64,000 nt of DNA from Oscillospiraceae bacterium (lineage in GTDB: Bacteria; Bacillota; Clostridia; Oscillospirales; Ruminococcaceae): NCBI GenBank assembly GCA_017505635.1, contig JAFVOU010000022.1, positions 37,915 through 101,914 of the forward strand, given 5' to 3'. Shown one piece after another: positions 3,201 to 42,685 of the stretch; the first letter of the stretch is position 1; each line of letters opens with the position of its first letter. Below the pieces are notes generated by a model. That model searched no databases. It was not told where the DNA came from and saw only the letters and a list, made by a program, of their open reading frames with translations. The position numbers and the translations under genes were made by a program.

Positions 3201-3454
3201 CTGTTTTCTCCGATTTATATATAAATAATTTATTACAATTTATTATGGCTGTAAAAGCCCACATTTAAATATACAACAAAATTGCGCCGTTATCAAGGTT
3301 TTTTCTTCCTTATATGACAATTATTTCACTATCATTATATAAAATTGTATCACATTTATTGTTTATAACCTCAAAAACTTTTCTTTGTGTTGACATACAT
3401 ACAAATATGTGCTAATTTTTTATTTGTGATAATACATATCAATAAATAGATTTT

Positions 3455-22468: not shown

Positions 22469-22816
22469 CTATTCGTTAAGACCAAAACTGATGTTGAGGG
22501 CATTGTTCAGCCGCTTTATGTCCTCGTTTGACAGCCGTCCTGTTTTTTCACGCAGTCGCTGTTTGTCTATAGTGCGTATCTGTTCCAGCAGCACCACGCT
22601 GTCCTTTGCAAGTCCACAGCTTTCTGCCTTTACGCTGATGTGGGTAGGCAGGCTTGTCTTGTCCTGCTTTGATGTGATTGCCGCCGCAATAACAGTTGGC
22701 GAATGGCGGTTGCCCACATTGTTCTGCACAATCACAACAGGCCGCGTGCCGCCCTGTTCGCACCCTACAACAGGGCTTAAATCGGCATAGTAAACCTCTC
22801 CCCGGTTTATCTCCAT
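22469..22816 (-). CDS. mazF: MazF/PemK (EndoA-like) endoribonuclease toxin, with no adjacent antitoxin
   Basis: It closely resembles B. subtilis EndoA (RGEVYYADLSPVVGCEQGGTRPVVIVQNN...LLEQIRTIDKQRL). It has a strong RBS (AAGGAGAG). No ORF lies between it and the terminator at 22907-22931. Confidence 0.9.
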   Translation of the reverse strand: MEINRGEVYYADLSPVVGCEQGGTRPVVIVQNNVGNRHSPTVIAAAITSKQDKTSLPTHISVKAESCGLAKDSVVLLEQIRTIDKQRLREKTGRLSNEDIKRLNNALNISFGLNE

Positions 22817-22906: not shown

Positions 22907-22931
22907 AAAAGCGGAGATTACTCTCCGCTTT
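22907..22931 (-). terminator. rho-independent terminator (copy 1 of an identical 25-nt hairpin)
   Basis: On the minus strand the stem is GCGGAGA-GTAA-TCTCCGC followed by TTTT. The 25-nt string AAAAGCGGAGATTACTCTCCGCTTT recurs exactly at 25440-25464. Confidence 0.7.
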
Positions 22932-22934
22932 CGG

Positions 22935-23729
22935 TTAAGTTATCAAATTCAACGCATCAAATAGTGATAACCAAAACATATTGCTGATTAAATTGTTACT
23001 TTCGCCTAAACAGCTCAAAAATCCTAACAAATAAAATGCCGAGTGTCCGATAAAACAATTCAATGTAGCAAATAAACTTTTACTCATCCTGAAATGCTCA
23101 CCATAAACAGGTAAAGATATAATTACAAACACGGCCGTTATAACAAACAATATTCCTGTTGTTACTACAAACAGAATTTGATTCATAAACACATTTGATA
23201 TGCAACTCAAACCTCCGATAACAAGAAAGCCCGGCATAAAAAACAGCATAGACAGTGCATCCATAAGATGCCATTTCATTTCTTCATATGATTCTGGTTT
23301 TTGTGGAATTGTAATTTTTGTTTTAAGTCTCTTTAACCACAAATATAGGATTACAATAATCACAATAAATAATATTCCAAGTATATCTGTAACAGGCAAA
23401 TAGTGCACATCATAAGCTGCCGATAACAAACTGCCTACTGTGTAATCCACGACAAAATATGTTGAAACCGCAAATACAAGTGGTGAAAATTTCACCTGAA
23501 CAGAATACAACCATAAACTTATTGCATAAAAGCCAACCCATATCAGGTGTGCAAACAGTATTTTATCTGCTCCGGACTGAACATCTTTGCTCATCTCCGC
23601 AAGAATCATACTGATAGATATGCTGCTGAGCGCAAACATTATACCCAATACAGGGTTATATATTTTTTTATTATACACAAATGCTTTCAATTTAGGGGAT
23701 GTGATTACAAATTTTCTTCTTCTCAGCAA
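22935..23729 (-). CDS. multipass membrane protein (paralog of 24372-25124)
   Basis: The ORF was trimmed to the TTG at 23729, which lies 8 nt after GGAGGTG. It has two blocks of TM helices separated by a charged linker. Its C-terminus SLFDALNLIT resembles PMFEALGLM of the paralog. Confidence 0.55.
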   Translation of the reverse strand: MLRRRKFVITSPKLKAFVYNKKIYNPVLGIMFALSSISISMILAEMSKDVQSGADKILFAHLIWVGFYAISLWLYSVQVKFSPLVFAVSTYFVVDYTVGSLLSAAYDVHYLPVTDILGILFIVIIVILYLWLKRLKTKITIPQKPESYEEMKWHLMDALSMLFFMPGFLVIGGLSCISNVFMNQILFVVTTGILFVITAVFVIISLPVYGEHFRMSKSLFATLNCFIGHSAFYLLGFLSCLGESNNLISNMFWLSLFDALNLIT

Positions 23730-23759
23730 AATTTTCACCTCCAAAAAAATCTTTATCAT

Positions 23760-23789
23760 ATTATATAACCGCCTAAATATTCGGGTCAA
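23760..23789 (-). promoter_or_regulatory. sigma-A-like promoter for the 22935-23729 gene
   Basis: On the minus strand it reads TTGACC-N18-TATAAT. It lies inside the untrimmed N-terminal extension of the track ORF. Confidence 0.5.
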
Positions 23790-23801
23790 TATCAACCTTG
23801 A

Positions 23802-24200
23802 CTAAAAGGTAGAAATCATAGCTTTTACATAATCATTTGCTATTTTCTCGACCAATTCGTTCATACTGAACTTAACATTTTTATTTTGTGCGGACAAATC
23901 AATCATATAGTTAAGTGCATATTCAAGAACATTTTTTGACATTTTAAGGCCATGTTTTGCAAATTCTTCACTTAACACCATTTGTCCTGCTTCACTACAT
24001 GAAAAATCAAATATATCATTTGCTGATACTTTTTCCGAAACGGCAGAAATTCCTGCATTTACAGCACCATTTACAAAATCCTGCCCTGCTGTACCACCCG
24101 ATGAGTTTATTTCGTGCATTTTTTCAGAAGATTCGTTGATAATATCCGTGGCTAACAAATACCCCGGAACATATTTATTAATAACTACTTTCGGCACCAA
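23802..24200 (-). CDS. hypothetical protein; its C-terminal ~59 aa are paralogous to 25204-25425, and its start is uncertain
   Basis: HGLKMSKNVLEYALNYM...FSMNELVEKI aligns with YGAPVSKEVIDYVAKYM...FDIEELLGKV of the other module. The track start is a TTG without an RBS, and an in-frame TAA lies immediately upstream. Confidence 0.4.
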   Translation of the reverse strand: MVPKVVINKYVPGYLLATDIINESSEKMHEINSSGGTAGQDFVNGAVNAGISAVSEKVSANDIFDFSCSEAGQMVLSEEFAKHGLKMSKNVLEYALNYMIDLSAQNKNVKFSMNELVEKIANDYVKAMISTF

Positions 24201-24371
24201 TTATATTGCATTTGTTGATATATTATATAACCCTTTTTCAAAAGCACTCAACCCTTTCACAGCTTTATCCTCATATTTTTCCGCTCTTTCCATAGCTCTG
24301 TAGGCATTTGTGGTTGTGTCTATATTTTATAAAAAACAAAAAATCAGAGGGCAATTACCCTCTGATTTCTG

Positions 24372-25124
24372 TCACATTAACCCTAATGCTTCAAACATAG
24401 GTTTTAAAAACGATTCATTGTAATATTCAACAGGACCATGTTCTATTATCCCTCCAACATATAACAGTGTAAATGGCCATACTATTTTGGAGGTCAGCCT
24501 GTATCCGAAATTGTGCCAATAAGCTCCACTCAAAAAAAACAGACCTATAAAATGCATAAAGAAAAATATTACCATCGAAACAGTTGTTATATTAAAACCT
24601 GTCAGCTTCTCAATAATAAAAACAATTTCTCCAAGCTGACTAAAAGCAGTTATTGCAAAAATATCCGTTGTGTATCTAAAAACAAGTTCAAGACCTTCAT
24701 CTTTGATGTGATATTCAGTCAGAGTTTTATTATGTTCCACTAATTTTAACAATACATAAATCACCGCTATAACAGCAATAAATCCCATTTTAACAACAGA
24801 AGTTACAGGCATTAGAACACCTTTGCCAAAAGTGACAAGAATATTGCCAATGCAACTGTCGGTAAAAAGATAAATTGACATTGCATATGTAAGAGGTTTA
24901 AACCCCATTATCTCCATAAACCTAAACCAAGAGGTAAAATACAACGCCATACCGCAAATTATAGCTATTATCCTTGATGTCATCCATTCTCCGCCGATAA
25001 CCTGAGAAAAACTTGCACTATTACCGCAAGCCATACTACCACATACAAATATAATACCCAGATAAACATCCATAGCTTTATCATTGGTTAAGAAAAAATC
25101 ATCTGCTGGAGGTCTTCTTGACAT
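24372..25124 (-). CDS. multipass membrane protein (paralog of 22935-23729)
   Basis: The ORF was trimmed to the ATG at 25124, which lies 6 nt after AAAGGTG. It has the same two-block TM architecture as its paralog. Confidence 0.6.
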   Translation of the reverse strand: MSRRPPADDFFLTNDKAMDVYLGIIFVCGSMACGNSASFSQVIGGEWMTSRIIAIICGMALYFTSWFRFMEIMGFKPLTYAMSIYLFTDSCIGNILVTFGKGVLMPVTSVVKMGFIAVIAVIYVLLKLVEHNKTLTEYHIKDEGLELVFRYTTDIFAITAFSQLGEIVFIIEKLTGFNITTVSMVIFFFMHFIGLFFLSGAYWHNFGYRLTSKIVWPFTLLYVGGIIEHGPVEYYNESFLKPMFEALGLM

Positions 25125-25203
25125 ATCTGCCACCTTTTATATACTTTGTGTTTTACCCAATGATATCATTTTTGCAATACAATGTCTATTTAATTATTTG
25201 TTA

Positions 25204-25425
25204 TTATATGAATCCTTTGGCTACACCATTTTCGACATCTATCATTATCGCAATTTTCAACACTTTCCCTAACAATTCTTCGATGTCAAATTCCGCATAA
25301 GGGTTATGATACACCTCATCTGCCATATACTTTGCTACATAATCGATTACTTCCTTGGAAACCGGTGCTCCGTATTTTTCAAGTGTATCTCTAACCACAG
25401 TATATTTCATATCCTCTGCGGGCAT
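25204..25425 (-). CDS. small soluble hypothetical protein (paralog of the C-terminus of 23802-24200)
   Basis: The start is at ATG 25425 or 25410. The longer track ORF would run through the terminator hairpin at 25440-25464. Confidence 0.45.
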   Translation of the reverse strand: MPAEDMKYTVVRDTLEKYGAPVSKEVIDYVAKYMADEVYHNPYAEFDIEELLGKVLKIAIMIDVENGVAKGFI

Positions 25426-25439
25426 TTTTTGTGCAGCAA

Positions 25440-25464
25440 AAAAGCGGAGATTACTCTCCGCTTT
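25440..25464 (-). terminator. rho-independent terminator (copy 2 of the identical 25-nt hairpin)
   Basis: It is the same 25-nt sequence as 22907-22931. It overlaps the last codons and the stop of the 150-aa membrane-protein gene. Confidence 0.65.
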
Positions 25465-25903
25465 TCTGTTTTTTATTGCTAAATTTTTCACAACAAAATT
25501 TAATAATAATTATTAAAACAAATATTACTGTGACAATCGTGTATGCGGTAATCACAATAGCCACAACTAATGCACCTACAATGCTGCCGCCAAAAGCATA
25601 ATCATACGAAAGCCAGCTTTGTGCAATACCACACAGTCCCACTGCATTAATCCATGAATAAACAAACAATATACCTATACGGCGAACAATAATATAATAT
25701 AAAACAGCCAAAAAGGCAAAAATCACAATGCCTTTTCCTATTACAGTTTCTGTTGTATAAAGTTTTATTGACTCGGAAACCATTTCGTATACAGGTGTAT
25801 TTTTCAAAACTATATCACGAGTTTTATCCACAACAGGTATAAAAATTATAAATGGCAGAAAAAAGAAAACAACTTCAAATATCCAGAATTTAATCTTACT
25901 CAC
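25451..25903 (-). CDS. small 4-TM membrane protein
   Basis: It has a GTG start behind GGAGGAAATATT and four hydrophobic helices. It lies directly downstream of the 527-aa protein gene. Confidence 0.6.
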   Translation of the reverse strand: MSKIKFWIFEVVFFFLPFIIFIPVVDKTRDIVLKNTPVYEMVSESIKLYTTETVIGKGIVIFAFLAVLYYIIVRRIGILFVYSWINAVGLCGIAQSWLSYDYAFGGSIVGALVVAIVITAYTIVTVIFVLIIIIKFCCEKFSNKKQKSGE

Positions 25904-25983
25904 AATATTTCCTCCTGCTGCAATTATTTATATAAAAATTATACCATGGGATTGTCTGCTGACGCAATTCGGCACAACATAAT

Positions 25984-27567
25984 TTATTCGAGAAAATCCC
26001 AGATTACAGACACCTGATTATCATCTATAGCCTTCAACGCTTTTTTCATCATCAAAATCTGTCTGTCGGTCAAGTTAGGATATGCGTGCCGCAGATAGCC
26101 AATAGTTTCTCCTTTATCTAAATATTCAGACAATTCATCCTCTATTTCAGTCTGTGAATATGGTGTAGTCAAAGCTATCTGTATACCTATATCGTTGTTT
26201 TGCAAATCCATTTCTGCGTGGTGTTTTTTGGTTGGATATAGTTTTTCTTTATTATAATATTCTGTGTCAATTTCTATCGGCACTTCCTGTTGAATCGCCA
26301 AAATATTATTGTCATACTCCAAATCAGAAAAAGTTTCATGTGCCGTCAGAAATTTTCTTGCTTCAGATTCTCCAACAGCATCAGTAATTAAAGCTGCTAA
26401 AAACATATACTGAAATGCATTAGGCAATCCACCATCAAGCCCTGCTGCATATTTAGAATACTTTTTATTATTATTCATTTCCCCAATTTCGTTTTCATTA
26501 TAATAAAAAATATCATTTTTTATTGGTATAACAGTGCTTTTAGCCTTAATTAGTTCAGGAATATTTGATACATACGGTAGAGGATTTTCTATTATTGTAC
26601 GTATTTCAGCACGATTAAACGGCGTGTGTTCTTCAATAAGCGAATTGATATATTCATTTTGTTTACCATATCCGTTGTAAGAAATTTCTCTCCAGAAATT
26701 CTCATCATATTGATATTTTTCATCCGGCGGATTAATCATATCATCATAATCAAGTATTGGATTTTTAAAAGGACTTTTCCCCTGTGTACCTGCTGTTAAA
26801 TCAGCTTGTTCTTTTTTTCCAACAGTTGTATTTGCCACTTCACTGTTTGGTCCTTTATTGTTTCCAAAATCATCCATCCAGTCAAACAGTTTCCAGCCAC
26901 CTTTTGCATAGTTTACCGACTGATTTTCCACCTTTTCAAGAAAAGGTGTTTCTTTCTTTGCAGTAACTGCTGCCTTTGCCATCTCCCCATTTGGGCCTGT
27001 TGCCTTTGGTTTTGTGTCACTGCCTGTCAACTGTGCGCCATATTTGTTCCACAAAGCATTTAAATCGTTATCATACTGTGATGTCCTTTTGGTTACATCC
27101 CCTGATGTTGCTGCCGATACTCCGTTTTTCTGCGGATACCAGCTTTTTGCCGCACCGCCGTAGCTGTTGTCTGACCGTCCGCCATATTCTTTTGGTTGTC
27201 TCTGCTGCATTCGGCCGATATAGCTTTCCCTCGCCTTGTTCTGCTGCTGTCGCTGTGCAGCCGTTGTATATTCGTTGCCGCCAAAAGTGTTCTTAGGTTT
27301 ATCTGCCTTCGCATTGCCCGCCCCTCCGTAACTGCCTGTATTTTTGGCAGGTGCCGTCTTTGGGGCTGTATACGATGATGTGTATGACGGTGTAGGCTGC
27401 GGTTCTGTCTTTGGCGGCGTATCGGCAGGTCTTGGAGCAGGCTGAGGTGTCGGGCTTATTGCAGGGGTTGGTGTGATTGATTTCTGCCGTTCCTGCTGTT
27501 CTCTCTTTTTCTGCTCCTGGCGTCTTCGCTGTTCTTCCTGTCTCTGTGCTATTCTCGGGTCTAACAT
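25984..27567 (-). CDS. signal-less chimeric protein: charged and Pro/Thr-rich N-terminal half, with an AT-rich C-terminal domain carrying NAFQYMF...AHE...MDLQNNDIG motifs
   Basis: Its ATG overlaps the holin stop (ATGTTAG, 7-nt overlap) and follows GGAGGAGG. There is no N-terminal hydrophobic segment. Composition shifts visibly at about 26.8-26.9 kb inside the ORF. Confidence 0.8.
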   Translation of the reverse strand: MLDPRIAQRQEEQRRRQEQKKREQQERQKSITPTPAISPTPQPAPRPADTPPKTEPQPTPSYTSSYTAPKTAPAKNTGSYGGAGNAKADKPKNTFGGNEYTTAAQRQQQNKARESYIGRMQQRQPKEYGGRSDNSYGGAAKSWYPQKNGVSAATSGDVTKRTSQYDNDLNALWNKYGAQLTGSDTKPKATGPNGEMAKAAVTAKKETPFLEKVENQSVNYAKGGWKLFDWMDDFGNNKGPNSEVANTTVGKKEQADLTAGTQGKSPFKNPILDYDDMINPPDEKYQYDENFWREISYNGYGKQNEYINSLIEEHTPFNRAEIRTIIENPLPYVSNIPELIKAKSTVIPIKNDIFYYNENEIGEMNNNKKYSKYAAGLDGGLPNAFQYMFLAALITDAVGESEARKFLTAHETFSDLEYDNNILAIQQEVPIEIDTEYYNKEKLYPTKKHHAEMDLQNNDIGIQIALTTPYSQTEIEDELSEYLDKGETIGYLRHAYPNLTDRQILMMKKALKAIDDNQVSVIWDFLE

Positions 27568-28022
27568 ATATCCTCCTCCGCTGTCATTTTATTTTCGGTT
27601 TTCTCCTTGACCAGTTCCACCAGTTTTGTCAAAAACGGCGGCAGCGGTGTGCCGATATCGGCGATGTTTTCCAGTATGCTTATAAGTTCGTTTGCCAGCA
27701 GCCAGAATATCACCGCAAGTGCCACAAGACAGTCAAAGCCAAATTCTATATGCATTGTATGCCCCATTTCCACAATAATAAAATCGGTGATATACCCCAC
27801 CAGCACCAGCAGCCACATACACACCTTTTTGGCAATGCCGTGAAAGCCCACATCGCTGGACACCCTTTCTCCTCGATAAACCGCCGCCATTATGCCTGTT
27901 GCATAGTCAACAATATTTACAAGCAGCAAAAAATAAAACGGCAGTGCCAGCACCCCCAGCCAGCCGTTGACCGCTGTCATCACCGCCACAAATGTTATTT
28001 TGATTTTATCTGTAATGTTCAT
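27561..28022 (-). CDS. phage holin (toxin-secretion/phage-lysis holin, TcdE-like family)
   Basis: The 153-aa product has 3-4 TM helices and the YATGIMAA...GIAKK block typical of the holin_4 family. It lies downstream of the endolysin. Confidence 0.8.
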   Translation of the reverse strand: MNITDKIKITFVAVMTAVNGWLGVLALPFYFLLLVNIVDYATGIMAAVYRGERVSSDVGFHGIAKKVCMWLLVLVGYITDFIIVEMGHTMHIEFGFDCLVALAVIFWLLANELISILENIADIGTPLPPFLTKLVELVKEKTENKMTAEEDIC

Positions 28023-28091: not shown

Positions 28092-28835
28092 TCAGCCTGC
28101 CGCAAGCTCTTTTATCCTGCTGAGGGCAGTTTTCAGTTTTTTGTTTTCCTCTTTGAGTTTTTCGCAGTTCCGGCAGATATGACCGCCGTCGCCGTCAGCC
28201 TTTCTGCCAAATCCGTTAAGCCCCGCACCCTTGATAATGGATGCAAAATCCTTATAGCAGTTGCTCATATACACCCTGCCGCCTATGCCTGCAACCGATG
28301 CACCGCTTGTGTACTGATGCATATCACAAGGAATAGTTTTGTCATATGCTGTGCGGTAGTCCGCTTTCCACAGAGTGTATTTTCTGCTCAAAGCCTCTGT
28401 GTCCAGCTTGTTTACAAGCCAGCTTGTGGAAGCATAAAAGCCCACATAATAACCCGCCTTTTCCACTTTGGAACAGAACGCATCGACAATCTGTGTAAGC
28501 AGTGCTTTAGACAAACTGCCCTGTCTCTGGCTGTTTTCCACATCATAGTAGATTGGCAGTTCAAACTGTTTGCCTTTCATCAGTTCAAGGCAGTATGCCG
28601 CCTCTTTTTCCGCCATTGCAACGCTGTCAGCCGCAGAGTAATAATAAACCCCAACAGGACAGCCAACAGCTTTAAATCCGGCATAGTGTTTTTCAAAACA
28701 CTCATCTCTGCCCATATTCTGTGCACCCCAGTATGTAAGGCCGATACGCAGAATAACACCGTCCACTGCCCCTGCAGTCTGTGCATAATTTACATTGGGC
28801 TGATATTTTGATATGTCCAGAATTTTATATTCCAT
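28092..28835 (-). CDS. GH25 muramidase (phage endolysin)
   Basis: It has DISKYQ, GVILRIG, YYYS and the YYDVE motifs of GH25 lysozymes, and a coiled C-terminal tail. Confidence 0.9.
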   Translation of the reverse strand: MEYKILDISKYQPNVNYAQTAGAVDGVILRIGLTYWGAQNMGRDECFEKHYAGFKAVGCPVGVYYYSAADSVAMAEKEAAYCLELMKGKQFELPIYYDVENSQRQGSLSKALLTQIVDAFCSKVEKAGYYVGFYASTSWLVNKLDTEALSRKYTLWKADYRTAYDKTIPCDMHQYTSGASVAGIGGRVYMSNCYKDFASIIKGAGLNGFGRKADGDGGHICRNCEKLKEENKKLKTALSRIKELAAG

Positions 28836-32103: not shown

Positions 32104-32862
32104 TCAGCGCAAAGGAGCACCCATACCGTGATAGCTGCCCCTCACTGCCTCCCAGTTCATAAACACAACAGGATACAAAGTCTGCCCTGTGTCAGTTTCC
32201 TCCGTCACCACCTGGTTTTCGGTTGTCTGCATAAAATGCACCCTGCCGTCCTTCTTGTAAAGTCGTATAAGCACAGTAACCGTATCCTCATCTTCAAAAC
32301 CAAAGGAAAAGCTGTTTTCCTCACTGCAGTGCGGATACTGCTGTCTGAAAACCTCCCTGTTCATCTTCTTTACAATAATTATGTACGGCTGCTTTTCCAC
32401 CTCAGCAGTGGAACGGTCGCCAAACACAATATTGGTTCCTGCCACAATCTCACTTTCCACCGTGTCGGTTTCGGGGTTATACCTCATATACATTGCACCG
32501 TCTCCGTCAATGGCAGCATTCTTAATAACATTTCTCAGCTTTGTTTTAAAACGGGAAGCCTCATTGATTTTTTCCATCTCCTTTTCCAGTGCATCTGCAA
32601 GCACAAACTCGCTGTCCCTGCATTTAAGATTGATAGCCACATCCTGCACCATAAGCATGCTGATAAGATAGTTGACCACCCTTTTAACAAAATTCAGCAC
32701 AGGCTTTTCAAGGTCGGGAGCATTCAGTCCCTCCCACTGTCTGCCAAGAAAAAATTTGTGATGCTGCTTTGATTTGCTGAACAGGTCCAGACTGTTTTTA
32801 TACGTCAGGTCTTTCTGATATTCCTGCCATATGCTGCGGCAGGTAAGCTTGTTTTCCGTCAT
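32104..32862 (-). pseudogene. phage portal protein, N-terminal fragment
   Basis: It has a portal-like N-terminus (FFLGRQWEG). It stops after 252 aa, whereas portals are typically more than 400 aa, and it abuts the capsid gene with only 56 nt between them. Confidence 0.45.
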
Positions 32863-33673: not shown

Positions 33674-34927
33674 TCAGAATTCAATAAATTTTTCAATCTG
33701 TCTGTCATAGCTGTTTTCTTCATCGTCCTCCACCGGACGCACAGCAGGTGTAGGGCGTCCCGCCACAAAATACCGCAGTGCATCAGGTGCATGGGTCAGC
33801 TCGTGGGGTGTGTCCGCCACATCATTGGGGTTTGTCTTGTCAAAGGTCAGCCCGGGCAGTGTCCGTATCAGATTAGGGCAGGTTTCAAAGATAACAAGAT
33901 TGGCTGTAATGTTTCCCCCTTCGTCCTTAAAAGGCATCAGCCATTCCTTCAGGTTGTACCAGCCCTGCACCCTGTTGTTTTCAGCTCTGGCAAGCAGAAT
34001 ACCGTTTTCTGCAAATATTTCGGCAACGCTTTTGCCGGTATCCTGCCGCCGGTTATACATATCAGGCGGTGCATAATAAACACTTATATCCTTTTCCTCT
34101 GCAGCAAGTATCTCCTTTGCCGCTGCCGAAATTATCAGATTGGGTTTGTATATCTCCCTGTACACATAAGCCCTGCCCCGTGTGTCCACCGCAATAAAAT
34201 ATCCCGCCAGCATATCAAGACCGTAGTCCATGGTAAAATACCTTTTCCAGTGTTTTGGTATAGCAAAGGGCTTTACAACGTGTATGCTTCTGCGGAACTC
34301 GCTGAAATACTGTCCTTCAAAAATATCCCAGTCACCGTAAAGCAGAGCACGGCGGTCCTTTTCGCCAAGGCGGTTAAGCCGGTTTATATAATGTCTGTCA
34401 TTCTTCATAAGAAAACTGTTGTCACTGACCCTTGCGGGTATAAACTGCCGTGTTCCGTTTTCGTCGCTGTAAATGCCGTTGCAGCACCGGTCGATAAACC
34501 TTGCCTTTACCCAGCTGTGCCCCACACCGCCCGGGTTTGTGCTGCTTTTTATCTGCTTTGGATAGCTGTTCACACCGCGTATACGGCTCATAAGATAGAT
34601 GTACATATCCTCGGTAAAATGCGTCAGTTCATCAAAACGGATAACATCATATTCTGCCGACTGATATCTGAACACATCATTCTCCCTGTCACAGTAACCA
34701 AAATCTATTATGCTGCCGTTTGCAAAACTGCCCGTGTGTTTTGCCGAATTGTACCTGTACACCGACATATCAAACAGCCCCAGAGACACACGGATAAGAC
34801 TTTTTTCAAGTTCGGGCAAAGTGCGGCGCAGAATAAGCTGTTTGGATTTGGGATATTTCATTGCATATAAAAAGGAATCTATCAACTGGGCATAGCTTTT
34901 TCCGCCCCCTGCCGCACCGCCAAACAA
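33674..34927 (-). CDS. terL: phage terminase large subunit (start codon unresolved)
   Basis: It has Walker A GGAAGGGKS, Walker B VIRFDELTHF and a C-terminal nuclease block. The track start is a TTG only 2 codons before Walker A. The frame stays open for 25 more codons upstream with no ATG, GTG or TTG. Confidence 0.8.
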   Translation of the reverse strand: MFGGAAGGGKSYAQLIDSFLYAMKYPKSKQLILRRTLPELEKSLIRVSLGLFDMSVYRYNSAKHTGSFANGSIIDFGYCDRENDVFRYQSAEYDVIRFDELTHFTEDMYIYLMSRIRGVNSYPKQIKSSTNPGGVGHSWVKARFIDRCCNGIYSDENGTRQFIPARVSDNSFLMKNDRHYINRLNRLGEKDRRALLYGDWDIFEGQYFSEFRRSIHVVKPFAIPKHWKRYFTMDYGLDMLAGYFIAVDTRGRAYVYREIYKPNLIISAAAKEILAAEEKDISVYYAPPDMYNRRQDTGKSVAEIFAENGILLARAENNRVQGWYNLKEWLMPFKDEGGNITANLVIFETCPNLIRTLPGLTFDKTNPNDVADTPHELTHAPDALRYFVAGRPTPAVRPVEDDEENSYDRQIEKFIEF

Positions 34928-35584: not shown

Positions 35585-36199
35585 CTAAAACTTTACCCTC
35601 AGTTCTATTACCCTGCCAAGAATTACAATGTTTTTTTCTTCTGCATCCCTGCGGGTAAAAAACATCGGTTCGTATTTTGAATTGTTGGATATAAGCACCA
35701 GCCCGTCCGAATGCTTGACCACCTTTTTGCAGGTTGCCTCTCCGTCCACCATAACAATGGCTATCTCGCCGCTATCCACATCGCTCTGCTGCTTTACAAT
35801 CACAATATCCCCCGCAGCCATACGCGGCTCCATGCTGTCGCCTTTAAGCTTAAGGGCAAACAGTGTATCGTTCTTCACCCATTCACGGGGCACTTCTTCC
35901 CATCCGGTTATATCCTCCTGTGCAGCAACAGGCAGTCCTGCCGCCACCGTCCCGATAACAGGAATTTTGACAGTAGCAGATTCTGCATACTCCTCTGCCG
36001 TGGCAGCTTCCTCAGCCAGAAGCATTTCCGGGCTCACTTTAAGTATTTCGCTCAGTTTTTTTATTCGGTCACGGCGCATATTGCTTATACTGCCCGTTTC
36101 CCAGCGCTGCACAGTAGCCTTGGAAACGCCCACATATTTACCTATATCTTCAAGGGTTATCCCCAGTTCTTTGCGCCTGGTTTTTATAAAGCTATCCAT
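35585..36199 (-). CDS. phage cI/LexA-like repressor (XRE HTH + S24 peptidase)
   Basis: The HTH reads LEDIGKYVGVSKATVQRWETG. The S24 domain has GDSMEP and a downstream Lys (CKKV). Confidence 0.9.
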   Translation of the reverse strand: MDSFIKTRRKELGITLEDIGKYVGVSKATVQRWETGSISNMRRDRIKKLSEILKVSPEMLLAEEAATAEEYAESATVKIPVIGTVAAGLPVAAQEDITGWEEVPREWVKNDTLFALKLKGDSMEPRMAAGDIVIVKQQSDVDSGEIAIVMVDGEATCKKVVKHSDGLVLISNNSKYEPMFFTRRDAEEKNIVILGRVIELRVKF

Positions 36200-36454: not shown

Positions 36455-36508
36455 ATGTTACAGAAATGCAACTTTTCTCGCAGAGCCTCAAAGGAAAGGA
36501 GACCACAG

Positions 36509-36955
36509 ATGATTTACCAAGAACTTAAAAAGCAGGCAATAAAAGACCTGACCGATTATTATTTTCTAAAATCCAGCCTGGACACCCTGACAAAGGAAAT
36601 AAGCCTTTTAAAAAACTCCGGTTTTTATTCCAGCCCTTCCTTCAGTCATTCGGTTATGTCCTCTCATTCCTCTGACAACGTGATGTTAAAACACATTTCC
36701 AGAATTGAAGCCCTGGAAAAACAGCTTGCACGCAACAAATCAAGGCTGGAAAACATAGACCTTGCCCTTAACGCCCTGCGCACCCCACAGCGCGAAATAC
36801 TTTTCAGCTACTACATAAACCGTCAGCGCACGGCAGTCACCCGCCTTGCAATAGACAGCCACACCGACCGCAGCGCCCTTTACCGCCGGGCAAACCGCGC
36901 GCTGGACAAGTATATCCTTGCCTATTTCGGCACTTTAGGTGACAGGGAACTGTAA
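36509..36955 (+). CDS. phage sigma-70 region-4-like / late-gene regulator-like protein
   Basis: The C-terminal LRTPQREILFSYYINRQRTAVTRLAIDSHTDRSALYRRANRALDK resembles a sigma region-4 HTH. The start was trimmed to the ATG behind AAAGGAGA. Confidence 0.55.
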   Translation: MIYQELKKQAIKDLTDYYFLKSSLDTLTKEISLLKNSGFYSSPSFSHSVMSSHSSDNVMLKHISRIEALEKQLARNKSRLENIDLALNALRTPQREILFSYYINRQRTAVTRLAIDSHTDRSALYRRANRALDKYILAYFGTLGDREL

Positions 36956-37114: not shown

Positions 37115-37245
37115 TTTATCCTATTAAGCAGAACCCTGAAACATAAGTTTAATTTAATAATAGACATCAGTCCTACCGTTATGTTATACTGTAAGTTGAT
37201 AAGATATGTTTGTCACTTACAGTATTTTTGCAGGGAGGTTTCGGT

Positions 37246-38391
37246 TTGAAATTCATCATATTCTCCGCACAATATCTGCCAACAGTAGGCGGTGTTGAGC
37301 GCTACACAAATTCCCTTGCAAAAAAACTTATTGCAAAAGGTCACTCTGTTACAGTGGTAACCTCGGCACTTGACGGTCAGCCCCACTGCGAAACAGACAC
37401 TGACGGCATAAAAATTTTCCGTCTGCCCTGCCTTATGCTTATGGGCGGCAGATTTCCCGTAATAAAACCAAGTGCACAGAAAACTGCTTTCGAAAAGCAC
37501 TTTGCTGCCGAAAAATACGATTTCTGTGTTATACAGACACGCTTTTACATCAACAGCCTGTTTGCCGCACAGCTTTGCAGAAAATATAATGTTCCGTCTC
37601 TGGTTATCGACCACAGCACCAGCCACCTTATGGGCGGCGGCATTGTGGGAAAATGCGGTGACATCTACGAACATTTTGCAGCAGATTATATAAAAAAACG
37701 CACCGATAAATTCTTTGGTGTTTCGGGCAGATGTGCCCACTGGCTTAAACACTTTGGCATAAATGATGCAGGTGTTATGTACAACTGCCCAAACCTTGAC
37801 GCAATCAGCACTTTGCCTGCTGCCGCAAAAAGCGATTACGGCTGCAGCGAAGACGAAATTCTTGTGGTTTTTGCCGCACGTCTTATTGCCGAAAAAGGTG
37901 TTTTAAAGCTGATTGAAGCCTTTAACAAAATTTCCACAACCAACAAGGCAAAACTTGTTATCGCAGGGGACGGCGCCCTTTACAGTCAGGTCAAAGCCAT
38001 GGAAACCAAAAACATCTCGGTTGTAGGGGCCCTTAAATTTGACGATGTTATCGCCCTTTACAAAGCAGCAGATATATTCTGTCTGCCAACCGATTACCCC
38101 GAAGGTTTTCCTACCACCGTGCTGGAGGCTGCCGCCTGCAACACAATGGTTATCGCCGCAGACAAGGGTGGCACGGGAGAAATTATTTCTTCCGATGAGT
38201 ACGGCATTCTCATCACCGACAACACAGTGGAAAACCTTGTAAAAGCCCTCGAAAAGGCAATTGACGACAAAACCTACCGAAACACTGCAATAAAAAATGC
38301 CCATGCAAAACTTATGGAAAGCTTCACATGGGAAAAAACAGCCGCAAAACTGGAGGCAGAAGCAGTTAAAATTATAAACGACAGAGGATAG
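37246..38391 (+). CDS. glycosyltransferase family 4 (GT-B)
   Basis: The TTG start at 37246 follows AGGGAGG. It has an N-terminal YLPTVGGVERY block and the EGFPTTVLEAAACNTMVI (E-x7-E) motif. Confidence 0.85.
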   Translation: MKFIIFSAQYLPTVGGVERYTNSLAKKLIAKGHSVTVVTSALDGQPHCETDTDGIKIFRLPCLMLMGGRFPVIKPSAQKTAFEKHFAAEKYDFCVIQTRFYINSLFAAQLCRKYNVPSLVIDHSTSHLMGGGIVGKCGDIYEHFAADYIKKRTDKFFGVSGRCAHWLKHFGINDAGVMYNCPNLDAISTLPAAAKSDYGCSEDEILVVFAARLIAEKGVLKLIEAFNKISTTNKAKLVIAGDGALYSQVKAMETKNISVVGALKFDDVIALYKAADIFCLPTDYPEGFPTTVLEAAACNTMVIAADKGGTGEIISSDEYGILITDNTVENLVKALEKAIDDKTYRNTAIKNAHAKLMESFTWEKTAAKLEAEAVKIINDRG

Positions 38392-38392
38392 T

Positions 38393-39091
38393 ATGAAAAC
38401 ACTTATAGTTATTCCTGCATACAACGAAAAAGACAATATCGAACGTGTTGTGGACAACCTTATCGAAAATTTCCCGCAGTACGACTACGTTGTGGTCAAC
38501 GACGGCAGCACCGACATTACAGGTGACATCTGCCGCATAAGAGGCTACGAACTTATCGACCTGCCTGTAAACCTTGGTCTTGCAGGCGGCTTTCAGGCGG
38601 GGCTTCGCTATGCAAGAAGCCGCGGCTACGATGCCGTGCTCCAGTTTGACGCAGACGGTCAGCATCTGCCGGAATATATTGCACCGATGATTGAATGCAT
38701 GGAAAAAACCAACTGCGACATCGTTATCGGCAGCCGTTTTGTAACAGTAAAAAAACCAAAAACACTGCGCATGGTAGGCAGCTATCTTATCAGCTGGGCA
38801 ATGCGCTTTACAACAGGCAAAAAAATCTGCGACCCTACAAGCGGCATGCGCCTGTTCAACCGCAGAATGATAAAGGAATTTGCCCTTGATGCAAACTTTG
38901 CCCCGGAACCTGACACAATCAGCTTTTTGCTTAAAAACGGCGCAACAATCCGCGAAGTACAGGTAGAAATGGCAGAACGCATTGCAGGCGAAAGCTACCT
39001 TAACCTTAAAAATGCCGCAAAATATATGTTCAAAATGGGCATATCCATTGTGCTTATCCAGTGGTTCAGAAAGAGAAAGGAGATTAAATAG
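38393..39091 (+). CDS. glycosyltransferase family 2 (polyprenyl-phosphate glycosyltransferase, GtrB/DPM1-like)
   Basis: It has IPAYNE, VVNDGSTD and the FDADGQH (DxD) motif, is 232 aa, and is followed by a DUF2304-type membrane protein. Confidence 0.85.
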   Translation: MKTLIVIPAYNEKDNIERVVDNLIENFPQYDYVVVNDGSTDITGDICRIRGYELIDLPVNLGLAGGFQAGLRYARSRGYDAVLQFDADGQHLPEYIAPMIECMEKTNCDIVIGSRFVTVKKPKTLRMVGSYLISWAMRFTTGKKICDPTSGMRLFNRRMIKEFALDANFAPEPDTISFLLKNGATIREVQVEMAERIAGESYLNLKNAAKYMFKMGISIVLIQWFRKRKEIK

Positions 39092-39093
39092 AT

Positions 39094-39459
39094 ATGAGCA
39101 GTACACTTATCGGTCTTTTGCTTATAGGCAGTGTCTTTACATTTCTGTTTGTAATGCGCCTTATCCGCAAATCTGCCGTGCGCATTGAAGACACATTCTT
39201 CTGGATTTTCTTCTCCCTCATTATAATCATCCTTGCCGCATTCCCCCGCATCCCTTACAGACTTGCAGCAGTTCTGGGCTTCCAGTCACCTATCAACCTT
39301 GTTTACCTTGTTATCATCTTTGTTCTTATTGTAAATCAGTTTCTTATGTCCCTCAAAATCAGCAAGCTGACCATCAAGCAGAAAGAACTTGTTCAGGCAA
39401 TTGCAATCAACGCAAAGCAGAGCAAAGACGAAATGGACGGAAAAAACAGCCTTAATTAA
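39094..39459 (+). CDS. small membrane protein (DUF2304-like)
   Basis: It has four short TM helices and a C-terminal coiled tail. This family commonly partners GtrB-like GT2 genes. Confidence 0.65.
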   Translation: MSSTLIGLLLIGSVFTFLFVMRLIRKSAVRIEDTFFWIFFSLIIIILAAFPRIPYRLAAVLGFQSPINLVYLVIIFVLIVNQFLMSLKISKLTIKQKELVQAIAINAKQSKDEMDGKNSLN

Positions 39460-39509
39460 TGCAAACAAAAAATCTCACGGTTCTCCGTGAGATTTTCTTT
39501 TTGTGTATA

Positions 39510-40790
39510 TTATTCAATTATCTTTTCAAAACAGTCCAGCATACTTTCGGCAACATATTCCACCGTTGCTGTTCTGTACAGTTCCTTTACTGTGGCAAAA
39601 TCAACATTTCTGCCTTTTGCATTTTCCAGAAAATTTTTCAATTCTGCAACCTCTGCACTTTTCCATTCCTGCAGATTATGCACCAGCGGATATTTTGCAA
39701 AATACTCTGCCGCAGGGCAGTTTTCAATTCTCTGAAGATTTAAAATCGGTTTGCCCATTGCAAAATAGTCAAAGATTTTGCTTGGCACCTGATTGTCGAT
39801 TTTATTGCTTATGTTAAACAGCACATCCGCCTTTTCCATTGTGGCAAGGGCAACATCCGCACTCACCTTTTCCTTAAAGAAAACATTCTGCGGATATTTT
39901 TCTATATACTCATCCAGCACCGCGCTGTTGTTTGTGCCCATAAAATATATGCGCACCTTTTCGCCTTTATCAAACAGACTGCTTAAAGCTTTAAGGGCAT
40001 ATTCAGGGCTGCGAAAGCTGTCTGCCACCACGCCTCCAAAAAGAATATTGATATATTCCCCGTCAAAATCAATTGCGGATTTTACCGTTTTTCTGCCGTC
40101 TGTTTCCGCCTTTGCCTTAACATTCGGAAAATCCACCGCCGTCATTTTATCTGTATATTTTTTATACAGTTCATCTTCAGCATACTGTCTTTTAAGCACA
40201 GGTGTGGTAAAAATATGTTCCACCTTGTCAAAAGCGGCACATTCCTTTTCAATAACAGCAACGTCACCGTTTGGGTTGTCAATGCGGTGCAACCCCCACG
40301 GGTCCATCTGATATGCCACCATCGGCACATCAATACCGCCGTTTACAACCTTTTCAAAGCTGTTTATCGGTTTGTACGGCAGCACCATAACATCAGGCGC
40401 AAATTCTGCCGCAAAGCCTTTCAGCTGTTTCAAACAGGACGGCTGTTCCACCTTTTCGATATATGCGGCATTGTATCTTGCCGCCAGCCATACAGCTTTA
40501 AGCGGATGTTTTTTTATAAATTCTCCCCGCAGGGAATTTCTGTCCCCTTTGCTGATAAACTCCTCAAAAGCTTCACTTGCCGTTACTATTGCCTTTGGCG
40601 CACTGAATTTTTTAAGCAGCACACCATTGTAAAATTCATCACAAGGCTTGTAATAGCAGATGCCGTACATCGCAACTTCGTGCCCCTGTCCTGCCATATA
40701 TTCTGCAAGCTGCAGCACTATTTTTGTATTGGCGTTAAGTTCTTTGTCAAGTTCCCCTGCCGAAAACAGTATCTTCACGGTATGCACCAC
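39510..40790 (-). CDS. GT-B fold glycosyltransferase-like protein
   Basis: The C-terminal SKIFDYFAMGKPIL block is similar to the GT4 donor-binding motif. The N-terminal half was not recognised. Confidence 0.55.
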   Translation of the reverse strand: MVHTVKILFSAGELDKELNANTKIVLQLAEYMAGQGHEVAMYGICYYKPCDEFYNGVLLKKFSAPKAIVTASEAFEEFISKGDRNSLRGEFIKKHPLKAVWLAARYNAAYIEKVEQPSCLKQLKGFAAEFAPDVMVLPYKPINSFEKVVNGGIDVPMVAYQMDPWGLHRIDNPNGDVAVIEKECAAFDKVEHIFTTPVLKRQYAEDELYKKYTDKMTAVDFPNVKAKAETDGRKTVKSAIDFDGEYINILFGGVVADSFRSPEYALKALSSLFDKGEKVRIYFMGTNNSAVLDEYIEKYPQNVFFKEKVSADVALATMEKADVLFNISNKIDNQVPSKIFDYFAMGKPILNLQRIENCPAAEYFAKYPLVHNLQEWKSAEVAELKNFLENAKGRNVDFATVKELYRTATVEYVAESMLDCFEKIIE

Positions 40791-40859
40791 CTTCCAAAAC
40801 TACATTTTGTATAAACAAGTCACAATATTACATTTTGCATACACCCCTGAAGCACAACC

Positions 40860-41906
40860 CTATCTTGCCACAAAGCGGGAATACACCTTAACCAGCAGAT
40901 AAAGCGGTGTGTACAGTTTATATCTCATTAAAATCCAGAACAGTTTAACCTGAAATTCCACACAGCTTAAATCGTCCCTGCTGAAAGACAAATCAACCCT
41001 GTTGCCATCGATTGTCTCTTTAAGATATCTTTTAACTTCGCCCAGCGGCAAAGCATCAATTTTCTTTTTAACCACCGCAGAAAAGGTAACGATAAACCTT
41101 ATGCGGTTGCGTTTTTCCACTTCCCGTGCATCAAGGCCCAGTCTTTTTCCAATCTGCTTTGTGTACTCTGCAAAGCGTTTAAGGGCAGGTACAGTATAAT
41201 CGTGCACTCTGTTGGAAACCGAACCCATATGCCTGCGGTAAAAATAAAGGGGACTGTTGACAGCCTTTGCCCTTTCTGCATAGGACAAAAACTCTATATT
41301 GAAAAAGTTATCCTCACTGAAAACTTCTTCCATAGGTTTAACCGCAAGATTATTTTTTTCAATAATGCTTCTGCGGTAAACCGCCATACACATACTGCCT
41401 GCAATTTCAACCCCCGCTTTTGTGCTTGCAATCAGCGGCAGAATCATCTGCTGTGCAATCTCTCCGTTGGTTGTACAGTCACTTTCGCTTATATTGCGCA
41501 TACTGCGGTTGGACAAATCATCATCAAAAAAGCGGTAGCAGGTACAGTACACTGCATCGAGATTGTTTTCTTCAATCTCCTTCATCAGCTGACAGTACAT
41601 ATCGGTGTCGATAACATCATCCCCGTCCACAAAGGTCACATATTCGCCCTTTGCCACTGCCATACCGCAGTTGCGGCTGTCTCCCGGGCCTTTGCCCTCA
41701 CTTTTAACAATGGTGATATTGTCATATTTTTCTGCAAACTGACGGCATATCTCCATACTTTTGTCGGGATAACCGCCGTCCACAATAATAATTTCAAAAT
41801 TTTGCCGTGATTGACTAATCACCGACTGCAGGCAGTCGGTGATATATTTTTCGGTATTATAAACGGTTACAATTACGCTGAGTTTTGGATTCAATACTTT
41901 CTGCAT
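40860..41906 (-). CDS. glycosyltransferase family 2
   Basis: It has LSVIVTVYNTEKYI, IIIVDGGYPD and the FVDGDD motifs. Confidence 0.85.
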   Translation of the reverse strand: MQKVLNPKLSVIVTVYNTEKYITDCLQSVISQSRQNFEIIIVDGGYPDKSMEICRQFAEKYDNITIVKSEGKGPGDSRNCGMAVAKGEYVTFVDGDDVIDTDMYCQLMKEIEENNLDAVYCTCYRFFDDDLSNRSMRNISESDCTTNGEIAQQMILPLIASTKAGVEIAGSMCMAVYRRSIIEKNNLAVKPMEEVFSEDNFFNIEFLSYAERAKAVNSPLYFYRRHMGSVSNRVHDYTVPALKRFAEYTKQIGKRLGLDAREVEKRNRIRFIVTFSAVVKKKIDALPLGEVKRYLKETIDGNRVDLSFSRDDLSCVEFQVKLFWILMRYKLYTPLYLLVKVYSRFVAR

Positions 41907-42676
41907 AATTTTTTAATTCCTCTCAGGCAGTAGGCACCGCCGATTAAAACCTTGTCCTTTATTGCTGCAGGGCCTGCCATAAGTTCCTTTACATACAGCG
42001 AATATCCCTGCCAGTTGGTTATAAGATTTTTGTCCACATTTTTTGTCATACCGTCTTCAAGGTATTCGGTTATGTGCACAATTTCATTGAACCATCTTAT
42101 TTTGTATCCCGCCTTTGCAATGCGGTTCCAGATAAGTGCTTCCGGCACAAACTTTTCCCCCGCAAATTCAGGAAACGGAAACTGTCTTATCACTTCGGTA
42201 AAAAACATTTCGGATTTATCCCCACCAATGTTGTGACTTGCCCTTTCCAATGTTGTGGCGTCCACATATTCACCCTCAAAGGTTGTACCGATTATACCGC
42301 CGCTTTTATCGCCGCGCAGACCGCCCACACCTGCAAACTTTTCGCCTTCAGGCAGATTTTTTATCCATTTAAGGCAGGTTTCCACACCTTTTGGTGTCGC
42401 TGTATCATCGCTGTCGATAATCCAGAAATATTCACCCTGTGCAAGCTGCAGGCCGCAGTTTATTGCACTTGGCTTGCCGCCGTTTGCCTTTTTATGGTAT
42501 CTCACCGCAAACTTGCCGTTATCAAGCCAGTCCCTCACCAGTTCTTCGGTGTTGTCGGTGCTGCCGTCATCCACAATAAGCCACTCAAAATCAAAACAGG
42601 TCTGATTAAGCAGGCTGTTGTACAAATCCCCAAGGGTATATGCACGGTTGTAGGTAGGTGTAAAAACAGTAATCAT
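41891..42676 (-). CDS. glycosyltransferase family 2
   Basis: It has ITVFTPTYNRA, LIVDDGSTDNT and the IIDSDD motifs. It overlaps the next GT2 gene by 16 nt. Confidence 0.85.
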   Translation of the reverse strand: MITVFTPTYNRAYTLGDLYNSLLNQTCFDFEWLIVDDGSTDNTEELVRDWLDNGKFAVRYHKKANGGKPSAINCGLQLAQGEYFWIIDSDDTATPKGVETCLKWIKNLPEGEKFAGVGGLRGDKSGGIIGTTFEGEYVDATTLERASHNIGGDKSEMFFTEVIRQFPFPEFAGEKFVPEALIWNRIAKAGYKIRWFNEIVHITEYLEDGMTKNVDKNLITNWQGYSLYVKELMAGPAAIKDKVLIGGAYCLRGIKKLCRKY

Positions 42677-42685
42677 AACATCACC

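Follow-up and report, generated by a model that had tools for sequence, protein, structure and literature searches.

A 64,000-nucleotide (nt) stretch of contig JAFVOU010000022.1 from an Oscillospiraceae bacterium, hereafter called the window, carries on its minus strand an open reading frame (ORF) at positions 25984–27567 that directly follows a phage holin gene. We interpret this ORF, with a probability of roughly 0.8, as the active-position gene of a prophage-borne polymorphic toxin–immunity array. It encodes a protein of 527 amino acids (aa) in which an N-terminal and central region that defines the family is joined to a C-terminal DUF6973 module. For the fuller statement, in which the toxin is also released through the holin or by lysis, our confidence is lower, and we still favor it. 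At the sequence level, the locus shows every feature by which polymorphic toxins in the sense of Zhang and Aravind (2012) can be recognized: a common N-terminus joined to unrelated C-termini, a type-specific gene immediately 3′ of the toxin in every locus, orphan C-terminal and immunity modules downstream, and a toxin domain that also occurs behind other trafficking domains (Rhs, and BteO of a type VI secretion system, T6SS). Toxicity, immunity and export through the holin or by lysis are what we infer from this arrangement.

Modular toxins and their partner genes

Relatives of the window toxin, here numbered by protein (P) and by locus (L), fall into groups that differ in their C-termini. P0002–P0006 are similar to it over the whole protein. 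P0007–P0009 share only the N-terminal and central part through the motif ADLTAGxQG and then continue into an unrelated helical C-terminus of ∼350 aa (type 2), which ends in …MHEINSSGGTAGQ…HGL.ISK.VLEY…. A third C-terminus (type 3) ends in a glycine zipper, which scores 33.4 bits with Gly-zipper_Omp (cut-off 25) and matches Bacteriocin_IIc weakly; the second toxin of L004 carries this C-terminus, and truncated copies of it occur in L001 and L008. The switch point lies directly after ADLTAGxQG (aa 255–263, nt ∼26780), and DNA similarity of the window to the type-2 loci L004 and L009 ends at nt 26779–26780 (aa 263). The N-termini also come in two types. Type A (M[LI]DPRIAQRQ) precedes the DUF6973 module, or type 1, in the window, type 2 in P0008 and type 3 in the second copy of L004; type B (MNYYTT..RRRQNEWR) precedes type 1 in P0003 and P0006 and type 2 in P0009, so that all tested combinations of the two N-terminal and three C-terminal types occur. 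Searches of the PDB by phmmer with the type-2 and type-3 toxins returned nothing.

The switch point coincides with a break in base composition. G+C content inside the toxin ORF drops from 0.52–0.54 to 0.29–0.33, and G+C content at third codon positions (GC3) is 0.42 in the family-defining region (aa 1–262, nt 26782–27567, minus strand; family alignments A1, A4 and A5) versus 0.26 in the exchangeable AT-rich module (aa 263–527 and stop codon, nt 25984–26781, minus strand). For comparison, GC3 is 0.39–0.55 in the phage genes, 0.42–0.45 in the host flank and 0.25–0.34 in the downstream cargo. The same gradient is present in the relatives. A mere effect of Pro/Ala/Gln-rich protein composition was considered and rejected, because GC3 shifts as well. 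An earlier note on this DNA, made from the sequence alone, had claimed an abrupt compositional change within the ORF, read it as a sign of C-terminal domain swapping and proposed a survey for the N-terminal half with other C-termini. The change is borne out, with the break at ∼aa 262, and the N-terminal half does recur with other C-termini, each of the three types having its own partner gene.

The same note had described a charged N-terminus followed by a Pro/Thr-rich linker and neither a signal peptide nor a transmembrane (TM) segment, and our analysis agrees on all of these points. The region of aa 1–262 consists of a charged helix (aa 4–29), a disordered stretch rich in Pro, Thr and Gln, and a conserved block (EKVENQ…LFDWMDDF..NKGPN…ADLTAG). 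In the full-length AlphaFold2 model the helix is confident, and almost all residues from aa 32 to ∼330 have a predicted local distance difference test score (pLDDT) below 50. The highest 19-residue Kyte–Doolittle mean of the toxin is 1.07, below the value of 1.6 used to call a TM segment, and the holin and partner proteins exceed 2. Hydropathy and Pfam searches thus gave no signal peptide, TM segment or trafficking domain, and no Pfam domain besides DUF6973 matched at E≤1, MuF (Phage_Mu_F), LXG and WXG100 being among those absent. Two short family-wide motifs were seen in this disordered half of the protein. NEYTT..QR..QN at aa 98–110 (nt 27262–27276) corresponds to the very N-terminus of the subtype B proteins. 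GPNxE[MT] at aa 191–195 and 239–243 (nt 26983–26997 and 26839–26853) recurs in one to three copies in most family members, always 5′ of the C-terminal junction. Processing sites, wall binding or recombination hot spots are possible roles for such motifs.

Immediately downstream of the toxin, at 25451–25903 on the minus strand, lies the gene of a 150-aa protein with four predicted TM segments, the candidate cognate immunity protein of the DUF6973 module. A homologue follows every DUF6973-type toxin (L001, L005, L008 twice, and L010). The type-1 partners have 142–150 aa and three to four predicted TM segments, type-2 toxins with their helical ‘SSGGTAGQ’ tail are followed by a polytopic membrane protein of 253–289 aa, and type-3 toxins by a soluble protein of 278–291 aa; for all of these the partner function is a prediction. 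Divergence of the partners follows that of the C-terminal modules (type 1, r = 0.77; type 2, r = 0.83). The 80 nt that separate the toxin stop codon from the partner gene contain an extended −10 element, TGGTATAAT (25938–25946, minus strand). At the equivalent place, reading by eye from the consensus, we found TGnTA(T/C)A(A/T/C)T in six of six type-1 loci and TATAAT in four of four type-2 loci. The element fits a candidate independent promoter of the immunity gene, by which the partners would be expressed apart from the late operon.

Further 3′ on the minus strand, the window harbors orphan modules. The first is a 95-aa ORF (25204–25491), a short remnant of a type-2 C-terminal tail, which by BLASTP matches the C-terminal ∼50–70 aa of P0009 (E = 3e-9) and of P0008 (E = 9e-8) as well as the other orphan toxin fragment. 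It is followed by the gene of a 253-aa polytopic membrane protein (24372–25133), a candidate orphan immunity protein of a divergent type 2, which has TM segments; BLASTP relates it weakly yet consistently to the product of 22935–23795 and, at E 2e-8 to 6e-6, to the partners of the type-2 toxins in L009, L010 and L004. Past the terminator-like hairpin after this gene (24339–24370), a pseudogenized 3′ remnant of a type-2 toxin begins abruptly (23802–24326). Its translation reads NIDTTTNAYRAMERAEKYEDKAVKGL…NAI*LVPKVV…, with an in-frame stop at 24201–24203 in place of Glu. The 132-aa ORF shares 89% identity with the C-terminal end of the toxin in L010 and 63% with P0009. The last module gene (22935–23795, a 286-aa ORF) encodes a polytopic membrane protein that appears to be an intact orphan immunity protein for a type-2 module; its product is 93% identical to the type-2 partner of L010 and 33–39% to those of L004 and L009. 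Its true start is probably a TTG near 23729, giving ∼264 aa, and a promoter-like TTGACC-18-TATAAT with a −10 box conserved in relatives lies ahead of it at 23789–23760. Orphan modules are likewise arranged in L001, L008 and L010. When the DNA of the window is compared with L010, identity reaches 93.8% in the orphan type-2 cassette but only 71.7% in the DUF6973 cassette, and the cassettes therefore have separate histories.

The cassettes in the window are bounded by a 25-nt hairpin, AAAGCGGAGAGTAATCTCCGCTTTT, which stands at one or more cassette ends in each locus read. One copy (25440–25464, minus strand) contains the KSGE codons and the stop with which the 150-aa gene ends, as it does after type-1 partner genes in general, and a second exact copy with a 12-bp stem (22907–22931, minus strand) closes the array; 100 shuffles gave no match. 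Matches of 97–100% stand at cassette ends in L001 (10095–10121) and L008 (763–787 and 4400–4424), and longer alignments of 75–94% reach the window copies from L009 (∼3330–3378), L004 (∼10505–10592) and L010 (∼1768–1792), while the genes around the hairpin are only 70–80% identical among loci. It is probably a terminator, and a role as downstream crossover site or recombination boundary is plausible. At the other end of the cassettes, holin fragments directly precede second full-length toxin copies in L004 (10658–10975) and L008 (1936–2088), and a truncated type-3 copy in L001 (10132–10233) starts with holin-derived codons. We read these fragments as traces left when cassettes were inserted by recombination within the holin gene. 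New pairs of C-terminal and immunity modules would accordingly enter between the holin/N-terminal region and the hairpin, pushing the old modules downstream. In a metagenome scan the exact 25-mer occurred at one unrelated locus only, L012, which has no relative of the toxin family, and it is therefore unusable on its own as a probe in that collection.

The DUF6973 module and its relation to BteO

Pfam places DUF6973 (PF22322) at aa 371–484 of the window toxin (nt 26116–26457, minus strand; E = 5.8e-8, 32.8 bits against a gathering score of 27), with NAFQY at aa 383–387, AHE at 409–411 and MDLQNN at 453–458. The earlier note had likened the C-terminus to an uncharacterized Firmicute domain with a signature of this kind. 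The likeness is correct, and the domain is DUF6973; the His of the AFRH given in the note is Tyr387 here (codon TAT, 26407–26409, minus strand). Among the invariant motifs of the family (AFxH, AHE and (M)DLxNN), the toxin has AHE and MDLQNN, and Tyr stands in place of the AFxH His. By homology, the C-terminus is a member of the DUF6973/BteO family with an atypical putative active or binding site.

The AlphaFold2 model of aa 259–527 is all-helical (pLDDT 81, predicted template modeling score 0.83). Foldseek searches with it against BFVD returned two phage DUF6973 proteins as the sole fold matches (probability 0.97–1.0), and against the PDB nothing below E = 1; weak phospholipase-C-like PDB rows at E∼4 were disregarded. 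A profile of the DUF6973 family matched PDB entry 9uu0, a fusion of maltose-binding protein to BteO, across all three motifs (E = 1.8e-12).

BteO is a T6SS effector of Bacteroides fragilis that is toxic only if sent to the periplasm, causes elongation, blebbing and lysis, binds the C-terminal domains of OmpA, and loses its toxicity upon substitution R143A, H144A, H167A, E168A, D187A or D191A (PMC12541434). In our alignment, R143/H144, H167/E168 and D191 are the motif residues of AFRH, AHE and DLxNN, and the motif is conserved in proteins annotated as from Oscillospiraceae, Anaerolineales and Mucilaginibacter and in phage proteins. This suggests that the residues reported as the OmpA-binding interface form a conserved, possibly catalytic site with a more general function and not a binding surface peculiar to one lineage. 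DUF6973 also stands directly after the Rhs/YD core-end motif (NNP…DPxG) in P0027, P0029, P0031, P0035 and P0036. P0029 belongs to an Rhs array (L014) in which a YD-repeat protein of >2,000 aa is followed by orphan fragments, each with a small gene after it, and the DUF6973 partner proteins of two Rhs-associated loci (L013 and L014) are membrane-anchored. Such sequence contexts mark DUF6973 as a genuine toxin module.

Because BteO is toxic only in the periplasm, its immunity protein BtiO is periplasmic, other DUF6973 partners are membrane-anchored and the 150-aa partner has four predicted TM segments, the window toxin is expected to act outside the cytoplasmic membrane. With an extracytoplasmic target, a toxin released into the medium would therefore need no import machinery.

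Compared with BteO–BtiO (Bacteroides fragilis GA3 T6SS; PDB 9uu0; PMC12541434), the toxic domain is homologous, and the extracytoplasmic-only action and cell-wall disturbance of BteO match the membrane location of the window partner. The two systems differ in delivery, as BteO has an N-terminal TM helix and travels by T6SS, whereas the window toxin has no TM segment and is presumably delivered by lysis or through the holin. They also differ in immunity, BtiO being a soluble periplasmic OmpA mimic and the window partner a predicted four-TM protein, as well as in the monoderm host without an obvious OmpA and the Tyr at the position equivalent to His144 of BteO. The overall layout resembles Rhs/YD-repeat and contact-dependent inhibition (CDI) loci, with a constant N-terminus, a variable C-terminus, downstream immunity genes, 5′-truncated orphans and cassettes of lower G+C content, and DUF6973 itself occurs as an Rhs C-terminus. 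The junction motif is ADLTAGxQG in the window family and PxxxxDPxGL or VENN in Rhs/CDI loci. Unlike the latter, the window family has no YD repeats, TpsA domain or link to T6SS or type V secretion (T5SS), and its constant part is a mostly disordered region of ∼260 aa coupled to a phage holin.

Coupling to the holin and proposed release of the toxin

The minus-strand junction of holin and toxin reads ...GCGGAGGAGGATATATGTTAGACCCG.... In the holin frame the gene ends with GAG GAG GAT ATA TGT TAG (…EEDIC*), and the toxin ATG lies within ATGTTAG, a 7-nt overlap, preceded by a Shine-Dalgarno sequence, GGAGGAGG, that is located inside the holin gene and ends 4 nt before the ATG. The holin (27561–28022, minus strand; Pfam Phage_holin_4_1, E = 1.3e-32) has hydrophobic segments by Kyte–Doolittle analysis and scores 63.5 bits with TIGR01593 of NCBIfam, ‘toxin secretion/phage lysis holin’ (holin_tox_secr), above the cut-off of 40.2. 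The first gene of the lysis cassette encodes a GH25 endolysin (28092–28835, minus strand; Pfam Glyco_hydro_25, E = 1e-21) that shares 73–77% full-length identity with its counterparts in L001 and L004. Overlap of toxin start and holin stop together with a Shine-Dalgarno sequence within the holin gene is found in four loci, the window, L001 (TGATG), L009 (TAATG) and L004 (ATGA), even though the overlap sequences differ. The earlier note had claimed both the overlap with the stop of a TcdE-type holin and, from it, translation as part of the endolysin–holin cassette; the overlap is now read directly, and the second claim is strongly supported.

The public automatic gene call (P0001, 408 aa) begins at Met120, the region concerned being 27210–27567. 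The first ten residues of the longer form are conserved, MLDPRIAQRQ in the window corresponding to MIDPRIAQRQ and MLDPRIVQRQ in L004, and this conservation and the coupled ATG indicate that the 527-aa form is the real product.

A TcdE-family holin and a peptidoglycan hydrolase encoded beside a signal-less cargo are the sequence pattern expected for export of the TcdE or type 10 secretion system (T10SS) kind. In the mechanism that we propose, the toxin would be made with the late lysis genes, possibly once the CI/LexA-like repressor of the element has been cleaved, and would do no harm in the cytoplasm, as its target lies outside it. It would be freed as holin and GH25 endolysin permeabilize or lyse a subpopulation of the producers, and would then damage the envelope of non-immune neighboring relatives. 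Sister lysogens would survive by means of a constitutively expressed membrane immunity protein.

This logic is known from colicin and pyocin operons and from Clostridium perfringens BCN5 with UviB, which combine control by an SOS-type repressor with a signal-less toxin whose killing domain lies at the C-terminus, behind a disordered N-terminal part. In colicin-type operons the immunity gene has its own promoter, immunity to membrane-acting colicins is provided by a polytopic membrane protein, and release by lysis kills the producer. Candidate counterparts in the window are the repressor with its helix-turn-helix (HTH) of the XRE family and S24 peptidase, and the conserved (TGn)TATAAT-like −10 in the toxin–partner gap, seen in ten of ten loci. 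The likeness is one of logic, in a monoderm Oscillospiraceae-type host, and there is no sequence relationship to colicins, pyocins or BCN5. Moreover, the window differs from colicin operons in having a full phage holin–endolysin pair for release and in diversifying through cassette arrays.

TcdE–TcdL of Clostridioides difficile and the type 10 systems (PMC12150058, PMC9527704, PMC10847048) employ the same holin family (TIGR01593), with an adjoining peptidoglycan hydrolase, a signal-less cargo and a phage-derived cassette. Their cargoes are anti-eukaryotic toxins or chitinases, whereas the window cargo is by prediction a polymorphic antibacterial toxin with an immunity array, and, unlike theirs, its cassette still lies within the late operon of a defective prophage. 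MuF toxins of temperate phages (PMC5576092; Bxa, PMC11699363) are likewise polymorphic toxins encoded by prophages, in Firmicutes and Bacteroidales, and are followed by immunity genes. They carry the head-morphogenesis domain MuF and belong to the structural module, whereas the window toxin has no MuF and stands behind the holin. Nor is it of the LXG/WXG type of the type VII secretion system (T7SS), as Pfam shows no match and the N-terminal half is predicted to be disordered except for the helix at aa 4–29.

The gene could instead be a mere occupant of a cargo slot, its product being exported by T7SS or an unrecognized signal and the holin overlap reflecting incidental operon packing. The region between lysin and att is a classic site of lysogenic-conversion genes, and the L005 gene exists without a holin. 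On the other hand, no LXG, WXG or MuF domain (Pfam) and no signal-peptide feature is present, the ORFs read next to the element include no secretion-system genes, the overlap with the holin stop is conserved despite differing overlap sequences, and displaced toxin copies carry a holin fragment along. We attach little weight to this explanation.

It also seems improbable that the protein is an accessory lysis factor that destabilizes the envelope after holin triggering, with the membrane partners acting in lysis timing or superinfection exclusion (Sie). Its place in the lysis cassette and its translational coupling would suit such a role, the BteO-family domain does cause blebbing and lysis, and the partners share their membrane location with antiholins and Sie proteins. 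However, three unrelated C-termini with matched partners and orphan arrays would be unexpected for a lysis factor, the domain is shared with Rhs toxins and one of its alternatives is a bacteriocin-like glycine zipper. In addition, the L005 homologue has no lysis genes beside it, and neither PHROGs nor PADLOC gave a match for the toxin or its partners.

Apart from T7SS, the routes by which large antibacterial toxins without a signal are delivered by monoderm gut anaerobes are poorly understood. A list of polymorphic-toxin trafficking modes from 2022 contains no holin-linked class (PMC9424270), and our literature search found no description of holin-linked polymorphic toxins. More tentatively, at somewhat less than even odds, the family may represent an unrecognized class of Gram-positive polymorphic toxins whose ‘trafficking module’ is an obligate coupling to a TcdE-type holin. 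Such a class would be borne by prophages, including defective ones, of gut Oscillospiraceae and would be lysis- or T10SS-dependent, colicin-like and varied by hairpin-bounded cassette exchange, with a more general and possibly catalytic envelope target of the DUF6973/BteO domain. If the array reading with release is true, a holin- or lysis-linked route joins the trafficking modes of polymorphic toxins, and gut Firmicutes would possess a largely undescribed way to release weapons by bursting few cells. It would also tie the type-10/TcdE field, with its anti-host toxins, to interbacterial competition and give bacteria a concrete selective reason for keeping the lysis cassettes of defective prophages. 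The BteO domain would then occur in Gram-positive bacteria and phages, a new setting in which the OmpA-specific, non-enzymatic mechanism can be tested. The boundary hairpin together with the junction motif offers a handle for mining further cassettes.

The defective prophage and its surroundings

The element runs from 36.2 kb to 22.9 kb entirely on the minus strand and comprises the repressor, terminase, portal, capsid-like and other structural genes, lysin, holin and toxin array. At its head, the repressor gene (35585–36199, minus strand) encodes an XRE-type HTH and an S24 peptidase (Peptidase_S24, E = 3e-30; HTH_3, E = 1e-12). The match of the lexA model to it is below the cut-off, and a CI/LexA-like function as an SOS switch is possible. 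The terminase gene (33674–34927, minus strand) is followed by a truncated portal gene (32104–32862, minus strand) of 252 aa, versus 500 aa in L001, which covers only positions 11–223 of the 594 of P22_portal.

Several observations weigh against our interpretation of the locus, and the truncated portal belongs to the first of them. A clean deletion of 2.1 kb relative to L001 and L004, with its junction at ∼32115 (compare L001 61–2165), has removed the C-terminal half of the portal, two genes (for 63 and 268 aa) and the beginning of the capsid-like gene, and consequently the prophage is defective and cannot make particles. Second, Tyr387 replaces a His that 28 of 28 other aligned DUF6973 members retain, and this allele may be attenuated or inactive. 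Third, the OmpA C-terminal domains, the reported target of BteO, have no obvious counterpart in a monoderm host. Fourth, L005 (7504–10109; likewise L006 and L007) carries a full-length DUF6973-type homologue and its partner with no holin or phage genes upstream; the gene starts with TTG after a non-coding leader of 500 nt, its upstream neighbors are ordinary host genes and a lysin is absent too, and linkage to a holin is therefore not obligatory. A derivation of L005 by deletion that kept the window's repressor was considered and rejected, since its upstream HTH protein is not homologous to that repressor.

The remaining points concern the support for modules and family. The co-variation of identity between toxin module and partner is based on few and non-independent pairs, and the pair L008a/L008b is discordant, with C-terminal tails 97% identical and partners only 46%. 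Promoter-like matches across the region number 29 versus 20.9±4.9 expected, which is not significant, and the DNA is AT-rich. Finally, the family is tiny, each protein search yielding fewer than 20 distinct proteins, most of them metagenomic: 9 matches to the toxin among 5.8 billion clustered proteins, and 15 in an exhaustive phmmer search of 1.84 billion representatives with the C-terminal module. A profile of the N-terminal region added only fragments. The toxin had no tblastn match among 50,697 phage records, IMG/VR scans with alignments A1 and A4 gave no relative, and a scan of GTDB genomes gave one species only, the Oscillospiraceae metagenome-assembled genome SIG522 (L011), with an ORF layout as in L001.

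Some of these points would be accounted for if the toxin system is real and this copy of it a decaying, non-functional relic, of which only the immunity genes are kept, against the toxins of others. This explanation is compatible with the array reading; we regard it as the less probable state of the locus, though one of appreciable weight. The loss of the otherwise invariant His speaks for it, as the H144A form of BteO is non-toxic (PMC12541434), as do the deletion through the portal and capsid region, the absence of any integrase or replication gene between the repressor and the glycosyltransferase cluster, and the pseudogenization of the adjoining orphans. Conversely, the 527-aa ORF is intact, AHE, MDLxNN, the coupled start and the lysin and holin genes are all kept, and His to Tyr is a single, rather conservative change that may preserve a metal or hydrogen-bond function. 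The earlier note had raised the idea of a domesticated lysis cassette, and this fits a prophage that is defective while its lysin, holin, toxin and partner genes are intact.

The deletion bears also on delivery with the virion, in which the protein would be packaged in or attached to a particle in the manner of MuF and delivered into or onto the next host. Phage-borne MuF polymorphic toxins are thought to travel with the particle (PMC5576092), and the long N-terminal half, disordered in the model, could thread a channel. Yet the gene is kept in an element unable to build capsids, it stands after the lysis genes and outside the morphogenesis block, and its product has no MuF or other structural domain. 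Furthermore, the homologous domain has its site of action outside the cytoplasm, and the immunity proteins reside in the membrane or are extracytoplasmic. We consider such delivery very improbable, and the array of toxins released by lysis or through the holin remains our preferred reading.

Host-flank DNA of the window and L001 is 76.7% identical and the phage genes are 75–79% identical, and these about equal values suggest a long co-residence of the prophage with its host. The L001 flank has the same genes, PemK, Peptidase_M18 and F420_oxidored; in the window, a solitary MazF/PemK toxin gene (22469–22816, minus strand; Pfam E = 2e-35) separates the cassette array from the host genes, which begin with the M18 peptidase. 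This MazF gene has a G+C content of 0.51 and no antitoxin-sized ORF in the ∼90 nt upstream, and its protein is 96.5% identical to the L001 copy, far above the conservation of its neighbors. At the opposite end of the element, a gene for a weak RinA-like regulator (36455–36955, plus strand; TIGR01636, E = 2e-4, below the cut-off) diverges from the repressor gene. Beyond it, a glycosyltransferase cluster (GT1, GT2 and GT4; 37210–43795) presumably serves the synthesis of a host cell-wall polysaccharide.

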